A DNA stretch of 64,000 bases. Origin: an uncultured Acidobacteriota bacterium. Its GTDB lineage: Bacteria > Acidobacteriota > Thermoanaerobaculia > Gp7-AA8. A program made the position numbers and the translations under genes. Positions 14,634-50,876 of the stretch are shown here, piece by piece. The notes under the pieces are model-generated. The model was not told the origin of the DNA, ran no database searches, and saw nothing but the letters and a program-made list of their open reading frames with translations. Position 1 is the first letter of the stretch, and the number at the start of each line of letters is the position of its first letter. The stretch spans positions 512,001 to 576,000 of the forward strand of contig CAVUKB010000005.1 of the NCBI GenBank assembly GCA_963741955.1. The letters are read 5' to 3'.

Positions 14634-14844
14634 TGCCAGCCCTCTCGCTGCCGGACATTGCAGAAATCGTTCACACGTCCCGGCCGCAACGCGGGAGGCT
14701 CGCCTGAATCGCTCCGCCAGCTTCCGTGAAGCCTCGGTCACGAACCGCGTTCCGGAGGCGGGAACCACGTCGATATGACGGCGATCCACGGTATGATCTC
14801 GGCGCGCGTACTGTTTACCCGGAGCGCTTCTCAGGAGAACCGGA

Positions 14845-15423
14845 ATGGCAAAAACACCCCCACCGAAACCGCAGTCGACGGCCAGAGGCTTCGCAGCCGG
14901 ATTACTCGTCGCGGCACTGATCGTGGCGATCGGCCTCGCAGTGGTCTGGTTCGTCCGGCGAGGACAACCGCAACAAACCGAGCCCGGACCGATGGCGACC
15001 GCGACCCCTCCCGCTGCACCTGCGCCATCCCCGACCGTGCAGCTTCCTCCGCCACTCCCTCCGGAGCCGTCGGAAGCGGAGATGGAATCCGTGCAGCGCA
15101 TCCCTCCCCCCGAACTTCAACAGAAGCTCGCGGACGGAACGGCGATCGCGATCGACACCCGGGACGTCCAGTCGTACGAAGAAGGGCACATTCCGGGAGC
15201 GCTTCAGATTCCGCTCGGATTCGTCCAGGGTGAGGTCCCGTGGTTCCCGAAGGACAAACTGATCGTCACGTACTGTACGTGACCGCACGAAGAGACGAGC
15301 GCCCGTGCGGCGCTGATCATTCGCGACGGTGGACTGACGAACGTGGCGGCTTTGGGCGGCGGCTTCGACGCCTGGAGAGCGAATGGATTCCCGGTCGATA
15401 CCGGGCTTCCGCAAAAACAATAG
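14845..15423 (+). CDS. Membrane-anchored rhodanese-like protein, probable selenoprotein (in-frame TGA at 15280-15282, motif YCT-U-PHEETSARAA)
   Basis: N-terminal TM helix and Pro-rich linker, then IDTR...YEEGHIPGA. The frame continues past TGA with PHEETSARAALIIRDGGLTNVAALGGGFDAWRANGFPV (canonical rhodanese C-terminus) to TAG 15423. Confidence 0.82.
15298..15314 (+). promoter_or_regulatory. Candidate bacterial SECIS hairpin of the rhodanese gene
   Basis: AGCGCC-CGTGC-GGCGCT stem-loop starts 16 nt after the UGA, with G in the loop. An alternative CCGCACG/CGTGCGG pairing is also possible. Confidence 0.5.
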
Positions 15424-48136: not shown

Positions 48137-48296
48137 TAGAATATGGTTTCGGCCGGGCGACGGCCGAAACGCTTGAGCACCGATCTCGCATGACAGGGGA
48201 GGAGTGCGCCAGCCGCACACAATCCGAGCTCCCGATGCGGTCCCGCCGGACGGACATCGGATCAGAGCGGATACACGAGGAGGAGCAGGGATCATC

Positions 48297-49301
48297 ATGA
48301 AGAGGACCATCCGGAGTCTCGCCGTCTCTCTCGCATTCTTCACGCTGGCATCACCGCTGCTCGCGGCACGAATCCGCGCGTTCGACGCCGTCTACACGGC
48401 CACTCTGAGCGGGATCCCCGCCGGAACGAAGAATGTCCGGATCTGGATTCCGGTCCCTTCCTCGCGCGATCACCAGATCGTCTCGAACATCCGGATCGAC
48501 GCGCCGTTCGCATGGAAAGAAAACGTCGAGCCCGAGTTCGGCAATCACTATCTCTTCGCAACGCTTCCCGAAGCACCGGGTGGGGACGTGACGGTCACGA
48601 TCTCGTTCACGGTGCAGCGGAACGAGATCACGTTCGCCTCGCTCCAGGCGGGCAAGATCTCCGATCGAGAGCTCGAGCGCGATCTGAAGCCGGACCGTCT
48701 GGTCACCCTCTCCCCTCGGGTGCGGCAGCTCGCCGACCGCGTCGCGGGAGGCGCGAGCTCGACGCTCGATCAGGCCCACCGGATCTACGACTACCTCGTC
48801 ACCTCGATGACCTACGACAAGTCGACGCCGGGGTGGGGCCACGGCGACTCGGAGCGGGCGTGCGACATCAGGAAAGGGAACTGCACCGATTTCCACTCGC
48901 TCTTCATTTCGCTCGCGCGGGCACGGGGAATCCCGGCTCGTTTCGTGATCGGCTTTCCGGTCTCCGCCTCCCCCGACGGACAGATGAAGGGCTATCACTG
49001 CTGGGCCGAGTTCTGGGACGGATCGAAGGGTTGGGTCCCGATCGACGCTTCGGAGGCCTCCCAGTCGAAGGACCCCACGGTGAGGGCGTACCTGTTCGGC
49101 AATCTCGACCCCGACCGGGTCGCGTTCTCCATCGGCCGGGACATCCGCTTTCCGGAAGGGACGAAGGAGCCGTTGAACTACTTCGTCTACCCGTACGCAG
49201 AGTCGAACGGAGAGTCGGTAGGGAGAGGAAGCATCTCTCTTCAGTACCGTGAATCGAAGCCTCAGCAGCGCTCCGCCGCGACGTCGGCGGAGGGTCGTTG
49301 A
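48297..49301 (+). CDS. Secreted transglutaminase-like domain protein
   Basis: Signal peptide; GNCTDFHSLF (Cys), GYHCWAEF (His) and WVPID (Asp). Confidence 0.88.
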   Translation: MKRTIRSLAVSLAFFTLASPLLAARIRAFDAVYTATLSGIPAGTKNVRIWIPVPSSRDHQIVSNIRIDAPFAWKENVEPEFGNHYLFATLPEAPGGDVTVTISFTVQRNEITFASLQAGKISDRELERDLKPDRLVTLSPRVRQLADRVAGGASSTLDQAHRIYDYLVTSMTYDKSTPGWGHGDSERACDIRKGNCTDFHSLFISLARARGIPARFVIGFPVSASPDGQMKGYHCWAEFWDGSKGWVPIDASEASQSKDPTVRAYLFGNLDPDRVAFSIGRDIRFPEGTKEPLNYFVYPYAESNGESVGRGSISLQYRESKPQQRSAATSAEGR

Positions 49302-49380
49302 GCCGGTTCGCCACTCACCTTCCCGGTGCCGTCAGCTCTCCGGCCTCTCGCCTTTCACCAAAAGCGCGTGGGCGTCGAGA

Positions 49381-49893
49381 TCAGAGAGCGAGGGTGCGGA
49401 TACGCTTCAACTGCTCGGACGGATAGAGACGCGGGTTCACTGAGCCGTGCGCCTCGAGGATTCGCCCATCTTCCCCGATCAGATAGGCGATGCGGCGTGC
49501 GAAGAGATCGTGCGGTGAGCCGGCCGCTCCGTACGCCATCCCGATCGTCCGATCCGGATCAGAAAGCAGCGGGAAGGGGAACCCGTGCTTCGCGGCGAAT
49601 TCCTCCAGCGCGTCGCGCGAATCGAAACTCGAACCGATGATGACGACGTTCCGCGCCGTATAGGCGTCGTAGAGATTCCGGAACCCGGAACCTTCGGCCG
49701 CTCACCCCGGCGTGTTCGCTCTCGGAAAGAACCAGAGTACGACCTTCTTTCCGCGGAGGGACGAGAGGTGCACCCGCTCGCCACGATGGTCGAGGGCATC
49801 GAAGTCGGGAGCACTCTCTCCGACCGAGAGCATGTGCGGCTTCCGGCGAAGCACGGCATCGGCGACCAGTCTGAGAATTCCCTTCAGCGACAT
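49381..49893 (-). CDS. bcp: BCP/PrxQ-type peroxiredoxin, probable selenoprotein (in-frame TGA at 49702-49704 in PRANTPG-U)
   Basis: APDF..LD..G..V.LSSLRGKKVVLWFFPRANTPG, TGA, then AAEGSGFRNLY...IIGSSFD...FAAKHGFPFPLLSDPDR...RRIAYLIGEDGRI to TGA 49381; GGAGG RBS. Confidence 0.88.
49673..49693 (-). promoter_or_regulatory. Candidate bacterial SECIS hairpin of the peroxiredoxin gene
   Basis: mRNA: UGA GCGGCCGA AGGUUCCGG-GUU-CCGGAAUCU, a 9-bp stem whose loop begins with G ~18 nt after the UGA. Confidence 0.65.
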
Positions 49894-49967
49894 CAGTCCT
49901 CCGGCGGGATCGGGTTCATCGGATCCGGGGTTGCAGGTTCACGTCGAAAGAGGCTCGAAGCTCGAGT

Positions 49968-50444
49968 TCACTTCATCCATTCGTAGACCAGGTAATGCTC
50001 GCCGGACATGCCGAGTCGCTCGTAAACCAGCTGCGCGGGTCGGTTTCGCCGGTCGACGTAAAGCCGTACTCCGGCAATTGTATCGTCTGCATCCACGATC
50101 TCACGAACATGAGCGTAGAGACTCGCATAGACTCCGCGTCTCCGCATCGATTCGTCGACGAAAACGCTCTGAATCCACCATACCGTTCGGGCGCGCCAAT
50201 CGCTCCACTCGAAAGTGATCAGCAGCGATCCGACCACCTTTCCACCCGCTTCGGCGATGAAGTACCTCCCGAGCGACGGATCTGCAAAGACGCTCCGTAC
50301 ACCGCGGCGGCAGGTCTCGCCATCGAGCTCGACCTCCTCCGTCTCCCGCGCCATCCGCAACTGGAACGCGACGATCGTCTCGGCATCAGCCTCCACCGCA
50401 TCCCGGCAGCGGATCGAGTTTCCGTCAGGTCGAATCTCCGTCAT
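49968..50444 (-). CDS. GNAT family N-acetyltransferase
   Basis: LLITFEWSDWR...WWIQSVFV..SMRRRGVYASLY, LYVDRRN..AQ.VYERLGM. Confidence 0.88.
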   Translation of the reverse strand: MTEIRPDGNSIRCRDAVEADAETIVAFQLRMARETEEVELDGETCRRGVRSVFADPSLGRYFIAEAGGKVVGSLLITFEWSDWRARTVWWIQSVFVDESMRRRGVYASLYAHVREIVDADDTIAGVRLYVDRRNRPAQLVYERLGMSGEHYLVYEWMK

Positions 50445-50605
50445 ACCAAAGCACTCCCGATAAGTGAATCGTCGTTTACCACTTCCGCAACAGCGCCGAA
50501 CGGTGCGTTCTTTCTCCAACCCTCCCCGGCGCGGACCATTCAATCACGGAATGATGCAGTTGCATCATTCCGAATCGAAAAAATGAACCGAGAATTGGGA
50601 TGTGT

Positions 50606-50876
50606 GTGGGCCATAGAGGAAGAGAGTGCTGGTGAAGGACCCTTGAAGCGGTTCGAAAGGACCGCGGCCCGAACGCCTCGAGAGGAAGACCGAAGGTTGC
50701 GTGACGAAGCTCAGCGCCTTGCCGCGTAACGGATCCAAGTGACCCGCCGTGACCTTCGGAAGAGACGTCCGAGCACAACACGATGGTGCCAAGCCTGCCA
50801 ATCCATCGCTCCTTCCCGGGAAAGGGACTTCATCGAATCCGCACCTCCCTACTCGGCCGCAACCTCTATGGCCCAC
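50606..50876. repeat. 14-bp perfect inverted repeats flanking a 243-bp intergenic segment
   Basis: GTGGGCCATAGAGG (50606-50619) and CCTCTATGGCCCAC (50863-50876). Confidence 0.8.

Follow-up and report, generated by a model that had tools for sequence, protein, structure and literature searches.

A cysteine-free BCP-type peroxiredoxin gene with a probable selenocysteine codon at the peroxidatic position in an uncultured Thermoanaerobaculia bacterium

When a TGA codon interrupts an otherwise intact peroxiredoxin gene exactly where the catalytic cysteine is expected, does it end the protein or does it encode selenocysteine (Sec, U)? This question is raised by a locus in a stretch of 64,000 nucleotides (hereafter the window) from an uncultured soil Acidobacteriota bacterium, corresponding to contig CAVUKB010000005.1, positions 512,001 to 576,000 (G000:C5:512001-576000 in the numbering used here), within an assembly of 5.44 Mb that is 99.1% complete. 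An earlier note, made from the letters of the window, had proposed that positions 49381-49893 hide a cysteine-free peroxiredoxin (Prx) of the BCP/PrxQ type with Sec as peroxidatic residue. These coordinates are correct for a gene on the minus strand; reading the same interval on the plus strand was considered and dismissed, as it gives no meaningful protein. With TGA translated as U, the frame opens with the ATG at 49893-49891 and meets an in-frame TGA at codon 64 (49704-49702), which is exactly the peroxidatic position of the PxxxTPG[C] motif named in the note. It then continues through 106 intact sense codons, including the Arg of RRIAYLI (R134), to a terminal TGA at 49383-49381; without recoding, the listing of open reading frames (ORFs) holds a 63-amino acid ORF which stops at 49702. 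The sequence around the codon, FFPRANTPG-U-AAEGSGF, places U at the Cys position of PxxxTxxC, and the 170-amino acid product is, as had been claimed, devoid of Cys, with Ser69 at the usual resolving position (U+5). Considering the sequence evidence developed below, we hold it very probable that this gene encodes a genuine Sec-decoded BCP-type peroxiredoxin.

The TGA is shared with the relatives of the gene. Among 40 related genomes, 22 contain an ortholog at E <= 1e-45 (one of them being the unpublished genome G030) and all 22 carry the in-frame TGA, the next match below them (G040, 43% identity) having none. In the 20 loci that were fetched, i.e., the window's own and 19 relatives from different genera at 52-63% identity, the TGA occupies the identical T-P/G-G-U column without exception. 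The ortholog protein alignment (19 rows), from which locus L039 was excluded on account of its aberrant C-terminus, has 39 invariant columns, R134 included, at 51-63% identity to the window protein, and the frame downstream of the TGA is therefore under protein selection. L039 itself (genome G025) keeps the TGA, and its C-terminus is divergent and longer (238 amino acids) with extra Cys, suggesting a frameshift or an assembly error. A broader scan using one genome per species found at least 566 relatives among at least 600 matched stretches. In the best 80 of these at least 566 relatives, all of them metagenome-assembled genomes of Acidobacteriota labelled mostly Thermoanaerobaculia, the codon is TGA at 77 loci and TGC or TGT at three (L058, L067 and L118). 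The TGA is hence no private nonsense mutation and the downstream frame is conserved and shows no decay, two points that the earlier note had left for the orthologs to settle.

The comparison with Cys homologues leads in the same direction, as their TGC or TGT aligns with the TGA of the window. G040 has TGC at the Sec column, within C-T-A-E-G-C, and so do the paralogs encoded in the same genome as the window, one of which reads C-T-A-E-A-C; a Cys form retrieved from the protein database (P0005, 57% identical) reads C-S-R-E-G-C. The CxxxxC spacing is found in G040, L058, L067, L118, P0005 and the own-genome paralog, and is absent from the distant Cys forms P0009 and P0013. Two public metagenome gene calls (P0004 and P0007), one of them named 'thioredoxin-dependent peroxiredoxin', have W at the Sec position, most simply because the gene caller used a code in which TGA is read as Trp. 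They exemplify the frequent mis-annotation of Prx-like selenoproteins, an established kind of protein, to which attention had already been drawn.

Regarding the machinery required for Sec decoding, each component that the note had recommended looking for is present in the genome with a score above its curated cut-off: selA (475 bits), selB (320.7 bits, or 350.6 when summed with its C-terminal piece), selD (359.5 bits, with one in-frame TGA of its own) and tRNA-Sec (69.5 bits with Rfam). ARAGORN assigns type SeC and anticodon tca to the latter, and no other tRNA among the 53 that it reports for the whole genome has a tca anticodon. Further tRNA-Sec-like Rfam matches were considered as rival UGA decoders and proved to be ordinary tRNA-Ser/Leu. 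In addition, TGA is the commonest stop codon, terminating 344 of 511 long open frames with high GC3 (G+C content at third codon positions), and the Prx gene too ends in TGA. As TGA is the main stop codon, UGA has not been reassigned.

A hairpin with a G-initiated loop had also been noticed downstream of the TGA, and it can be located precisely. On the minus strand, two complementary arms (49693-49685 and 49681-49673) form a 9-bp stem around a GUU apical loop (49684-49682), giving AGGUUCCGG-GUU-CCGGAAUCU. The hairpin starts 8 nucleotides (nt) past the UGA and corresponds to the minimum free energy structure of the window sequence. A stem-loop that directly follows the UGA and whose apical loop is small and includes a G, the mark of a bacterial Sec insertion sequence (SECIS) in the Sargasso Sea survey (PMC1088965), is thus what this gene contains. 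Across 20 orthologs, synonymous sites are frozen within the hairpin, the codons in use being GGT (19/20) and GGG (19/19) for Gly, TCC (18/18) for Ser, TTC (20/20) for Phe, CGG (20/20) for Arg and GAC (18/18) for Asp, whereas invariant Gly columns elsewhere in the gene use 3-4 codons in these same orthologs. In a larger set of 78 Sec-form sequences, 75 of them distinct, 97.3% of the 675 stem cells are paired, as opposed to at most 66.5% when the partner is slid. Pair 23-33 is found as CG (56), GC (15), AU (1) and UA (1) and yields 17 double-change cells, a number which none of 500 shuffles reaches, although these cells come mostly from one 14-row clade and therefore represent perhaps 3-4 independent events. 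In the G-C variant of this pair, Ser UCC is changed to Cys UGC at U+5 and the change is balanced by a synonymous one, CGG to CGC, in the opposing Arg codon; as the codon of the resolving position sits in the SECIS stem, protein change and RNA pairing are coupled at this site (UCC/CGG versus UGC/CGC). Moreover, none of the three Cys-form genes forms the hairpin. On this comparative evidence, the hairpin is under RNA-level selection.

The family assignment relies on both sequence and predicted structure. The Pfam domain AhpC-TSA (PF00578) covers residues 24-145, across the TGA, with 109.5 bits (cut-off 26; 1.3e-31), and a sequence search of the PDB ranks BCPs at the top, the best being Bcp1 from Sulfolobus solfataricus (3drn, 85.6 bits), with the TPG-U column aligned to the peroxidatic position, which is mutated in that chain. 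An AlphaFold2 (AF2) model built from the ortholog alignment has a mean predicted local distance difference test score (pLDDT) of 91.8 and a predicted template-modelling score (pTM) of 0.85, and its top Foldseek matches are all BCP/PrxQ chains (9a4d_B, a BCP, followed by 3drn, 5epf, 5enu and 3hjp). In peroxiredoxins, helix alpha-2 of the thioredoxin fold carries the peroxidatic residue in its first turn, and the model places U64 likewise in that of helix 62-73. P57, T61, U64 and R134 are all invariant columns of the ortholog alignment, while the resolving Cys five residues after the peroxidatic one, typical of the BCP/PrxQ subfamily but not universal in it, is replaced by Ser69. By sequence and modelled fold, the protein is thus a BCP/PrxQ-subfamily peroxiredoxin with a predicted peroxidase function.

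From these elements a plausible course of events can be drawn. UGA at codon 64 would be decoded by Sec-tRNA(Sec), which SelB would deliver after recognizing the in-gene hairpin 8 nt downstream. If the protein follows the mechanism of the Prx family, the U64 selenolate, activated by Thr61 and Arg134, would attack the peroxide and be converted into selenenic acid. Because the protein has no Cys and carries Ser at the resolving position, this selenenic acid would have to be reduced by an external reductant, which might be thioredoxin, a glutaredoxin or a low-molecular-weight thiol acting on it directly, in a '1-Sec' cycle analogous to that of 1-Cys Prx or GPx. The cysteine-free '1-Sec peroxiredoxin' of the earlier note hence describes the composition of the window protein well; its mechanism is put forward by analogy and is, as shown further on, not typical of the clade. 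We are considerably less sure of how such a 1-Sec cycle would run in detail than of the Sec-decoded Prx identity.

Several observations weigh against this interpretation or parts of it. As a single sequence, the hairpin region folds no better than shuffled sequences (z = +0.05 over 66 nt; z = -1.48 over 45 nt, where 17 of 200 shuffles fold equally well), so that the case for the hairpin is built on comparison and not on thermodynamics. The 20-ortholog set, in which 97.2% of stem cells are paired, contains zero double compensatory changes, and in the 78-sequence set covariation concerns one of the nine stem pairs only. A search of Rfam at E <= 10 over 49300-50000 returned no SECIS family, its three matches all being sub-threshold and attributable to chance. 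At the protein level, the best NCBIfam model, Bcp PRK09437 (NF006960, E. coli Bcp), gives 86.1 for a cut-off of 140 and the PrxQ model NF053650 (Deinococcus PrxQ) 72.1 for a cut-off of 260. As both equivalog scores are below cut-off, the protein belongs to a divergent clade and is a relative within the subfamily rather than an equivalog; the two Sec-Prx equivalogs, PrxU (NF040737; 47.9 versus 270) and Prx-SUH (NF045827; 15.5 versus 298), are below cut-off as well. Clustering of the neighbours at 81 loci reveals no conserved thioredoxin or glutaredoxin gene that would point to the reductant. Finally, both Sec insertion at codon 64 and the expression of the gene are predictions here.

Could the locus then be a pseudogene, its TGA having arisen by nonsense mutation while a BCP gene decayed, or through faulty assembly? 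Standard gene calling would yield two pieces, as the 63-amino acid ORF ending at 49702 illustrates, and the aberrant C-terminus of L039 suggests that a frameshift has occurred in one ortholog. Such a pseudogene is nevertheless effectively refuted by conservation, since the same TGA stands in 20 of 20 loci and in 77 of the best 80, from different genera, the 106 downstream codons are intact and conserved and the genome has a complete Sec machinery; we regard it as exceedingly improbable. A different objection accepts that UGA is read through and contests the residue, which might be Cys brought by a tRNA-Sec-like tRNA(Cys), Trp, Gly or unconverted Ser on tRNA-Sec, the product being an ordinary or inactive Prx. 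According to Mukai et al. (PMC5389517), tRNA-Sec-like opal suppressors and allo-tRNAs do exist, some of them in Acidobacteria, and W stands at the Sec position of the two database translations mentioned above. However, the one UCA-anticodon tRNA among 53 is typed as tRNA-Sec by both Rfam and ARAGORN, selA, selB and selD are present, TGA serves as the main stop and the SelB-type hairpin is conserved in TGA forms only, which makes the insertion of another residue very unlikely.

The last alternative concerns the function: the protein may be a genuine selenoprotein that does not act mainly as a peroxidase and uses the Prx fold instead for thiol/selenol oxidoreduction or redox sensing, partnered by the conserved U+47 Cys or by an external protein. 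It could be argued in this sense that the scores fall short of the Bcp and PrxQ equivalog cut-offs, that the clade has a specific N-terminal extension of 20 residues and that the frequent downstream neighbours encode an HlyD-type protein and an ABC ATPase, which are not redox genes. With the peroxidatic context (P57, T61, U64 and R134) being invariant and the nearest relatives in sequence and fold all being characterised BCP/PrxQ-type peroxidases, we judge this alternative improbable and retain a Sec-decoded BCP-type peroxiredoxin as the best explanation of the locus.

Within the clade, the Sec-decoded peroxiredoxins differ in their Cys content. Among the 78 Sec forms, U+5 is Ser in 56 and Cys in 12, the remaining 10 having other residues, and Cys is found at U+47, in the PLLCD strand, in 62 of 78 and at U+60 in 19 of 78. 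The Cys-free proteins, the one of the window included, are a minority of 6 out of 78. These counts speak against extending '1-Sec' to all members, and the term may not be descriptive of the whole clade. In the window protein, U+47 is Ser (codon ~49561-49563). In a quick maximum-likelihood tree of Sec and Cys forms, the Cys forms fall inside Sec groups: L058 is the sister of L066, with a value of 98 in the Shimodaira-Hasegawa-like approximate likelihood ratio test (SH-aLRT), and L067 and P0005 belong to a starred 24-row group with 22 Sec rows. The UxxxxC forms gather in one 14-row group, where 12 of the 14 rows keep UxxxxC. When monophyly of all 80 Sec rows is put to an approximately unbiased (AU) test, the result is a borderline p = 0.0497, and the group had been defined with the tree already in view; for this reason, the nesting of the Cys forms and a Sec-to-Cys direction are not established, and Sec-to-Cys reversion is to be taken as a hypothesis only. 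It is tempting to speculate, although we lean towards doubting it, that the adoption of Sec made the resolving Cys dispensable in this acidobacterial clade, with UxxxxC mostly kept in the group of 14, UxxxxS reached in most Sec forms (56/78) and Cys lost altogether in a few (6/78), and with the nested Cys forms L058, L067 and P0005 all being CxxxxC. If true, the clade would be a natural evolutionary experiment, in which selenenic acid, unlike sulfenic acid, needs no intramolecular disulfide protection. It would also include Sec-to-Cys reversions, which, according to the survey by Zhang et al. (2006; PMC1794560), were not found in the Prx family.

The peroxiredoxin is probably not alone in its genome. 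The rhodanese to which the earlier note had pointed as another candidate does exist in the window, its domain extending across an in-frame TGA (Table 1), and a paralog sharing both its motif and its TGA is found at G000:C5:101589-101591. The further suggestion of a selenoprotein-rich genome is in line with a crude genome-wide scan for in-frame TGA codons that are flanked on either side by coding signal and have a hairpin after them, with a redox-motif filter and a Pfam check as further steps. The strictest settings missed the window Prx and a loose setting gave 227 raw matches, of which only the motif-filtered ones were taken to Pfam. Ten scan proteins were checked in this way: two (L137 and L139) had no match and eight had a domain spanning the TGA, namely an ArsC-family protein, a thioredoxin-like/NHL protein, a Thioredoxin_3 protein, a GrdB-like protein, a Thioredoxin_7/TPR protein, two rhodaneses and a second peroxiredoxin. 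Together with SelD and the window Prx, they amount to at least 10 candidate selenoproteins, a count which, given the low sensitivity of the scan, is a rough lower bound and no selenoproteome. The candidate positions in G000 are C1:496292, C4:233696, C5:578319, C7:147896, C10:111308, C5:101589, C10:264308-264700 and C7:622998. No FdhA-type candidate surfaced in this crude scan, which was accompanied by no search aimed at FdhA. The second peroxiredoxin (L045:1426-1956, minus strand, equal to G000:C10:264308-264700) has TGA at the peroxidatic position (W-T-P-V-U) and an AhpC-TSA match of 134 bits, and matches to its family with one TGA occur in several relatives. In Zhang et al. (2006; PMC1794560), 'selenoprotein-rich' denotes six or more selenoproteins per genome, and Acidobacteria are credited with three families and four selenoproteins. 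Thermoanaerobaculia and the genome of the window thus appear to use selenium far more than these 2006 figures imply.

Table 1. Positions of the peroxiredoxin gene, its elements and the rhodanese gene in the window.
Feature	Position	Strand	Remarks
Predicted Sec-type BCP/PrxQ peroxiredoxin gene, complete	49381..49893	minus	170 sense codons including codon 64 (TGA, taken as Sec), followed by terminal TGA
Active-site motif P57-R-A-N-T61-P-G-U64	49702..49725	minus	TGA column kept in orthologs
Ser69 (UCC), U+5, usual resolving-Cys site of CxxxxC-type BCPs	49687..49689	minus	inside 5' arm of the hairpin
Conserved active-site Arg134 codon (RRIAYLI)	49492..49494	minus	invariant in ortholog protein alignment; aligns with ARITFVI of PDB 3drn
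Candidate bacterial SECIS	49673..49693	minus	9-bp stem, codons E67-L74
Shine-Dalgarno-like GGAGG	49898..49902	minus	4 nt 5' of ATG, read from DNA
N-terminal extension, residues 1-20	49834..49893	minus	not in solved BCP structures; helix 3-15 predicted, low confidence
Rhodanese-domain gene with in-frame TGA at active site	14797-15420, TGA 15280-15282	plus	YCT-U-P; Pfam Rhodanese 55.5 bits, spans TGA

A start at M1 rather than at M21 is favoured because of the GGAGG located just upstream of the first ATG. The N-terminal extension that this start implies is present in 17 of the 19 rows of the ortholog alignment; PDB matches begin at residue 21 and the AF2 model has pLDDT values of 62-67 over the first 20 residues. 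Most relatives are organized differently at this end: a TANNNT box, usually TACAAT, ends 4-12 nt before the start in 48 of 78 Sec-form genes (L052-L131) and a Shine-Dalgarno-like motif is found in 14 of 78, which suggests leaderless mRNAs in most of them, whereas the copy of the window has GGAGG and no TANNNT box. The sole sigma-70-like promoter match in 49250-50650 lies at 50077-50104 on the minus strand (GTGAGA, 16 nt, TACAAT), within the gene of a GNAT acetyltransferase and ~185 nt before the Prx start.

This acetyltransferase gene (49968-50543) and that of a PAS/LuxR regulator are upstream of the Prx gene on the same strand. Downstream, there is a convergent transglutaminase-like gene on the plus strand (48204-49301) and then genes for an ABC ATPase and an ABC exporter. 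Across the 81 loci, where several neighbour clusters consist of Prx gene fragments or antisense ORFs, the same-strand downstream genes include an HlyD-family membrane-fusion protein (38/81; e.g., L076:3589-4815) and an ABC ATPase (39/81); the window keeps the ABC genes, but the transglutaminase-like gene intervenes.

The kind of protein to which this gene belongs is not new. COG1225, we assume, is the COG of Bcp-type proteins. It is under COG1225 that the Sargasso Sea survey filed its 43 Prx (TxxU) sequences (PMC1088965), while 12 Prx selenoproteins were counted in complete genomes in 2006 (PMC1794560) and a 2026 review lists the family with PF00578 (PMC13188914). Through the Kryukov, Zhang and Gladyshev surveys, the family has been catalogued since 2001-2006. 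Because every defining feature tested is present, the gene belongs to this known kind and is a new member, within a large acidobacterial clade, of the established Sec-Prx family. The phylum Acidobacteria is not mentioned in the text of the 2026 review (PMC13188914), and a search limited to open-access literature text found no description of the acidobacterial clade or of a Cys-free Sec-BCP.

In practical terms, gene callers would break the Prx gene in two, or give residue 64 as W, as has happened in the two public entries, and no NCBIfam model reaches its cut-off on the clade, though at least 77 species-level genomes carry its gene. Moreover, a natural Cys-free Prx in which Sec would be the sole redox residue is a clean system to study what Sec buys a thiol peroxidase, over-oxidation resistance and direct reduction being the obvious candidate gains, and close natural CxxxxC and UxxxxC relatives can serve as comparators. 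The finding therefore corrects an annotation and points to a selenium-rich lineage; it does not overturn current understanding and would not surprise a specialist.

Compared with known systems, the gene shares with the Prx TxxU selenoprotein family the Pfam domain, the T-x-x-U motif, the directly downstream hairpin with its small G-containing loop and the widespread Cys homologues. It differs in that its clade is acidobacterial (Thermoanaerobaculia), that most members of this clade have lost the U+5 Cys and that the window protein is Cys-free. With the CxxxxC BCP/PrxQ enzymes, i.e., 3drn, PrxQ from Xanthomonas campestris (5iiz and related structures) and BcpB from Mycobacterium tuberculosis (5epf), it has in common the fold (TM 0.79-0.82, query-normalised; 28-35% identity), the PxxxTxxC context and the conserved Arg, whereas it has, by prediction, Sec for the peroxidatic Cys, Ser for the resolving Cys and an extra N-terminus of 20 residues. 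PrxU of Eubacterium acidaminophilum, reportedly the first Sec-peroxiredoxin to be described biochemically, by Sohling and colleagues in 2001, likewise has Sec as its peroxidatic residue, but it belongs to another Prx subfamily, as reflected by the score of the window protein with its model (47.9 versus 270). Finally, 1-Cys Prx such as AhpE from M. tuberculosis (1xvw), which is among the fold matches, would by analogy resemble the window protein in having no in-chain resolving residue and in needing external reduction; they use Cys and not Sec, and AhpE is a member of a different subfamily.

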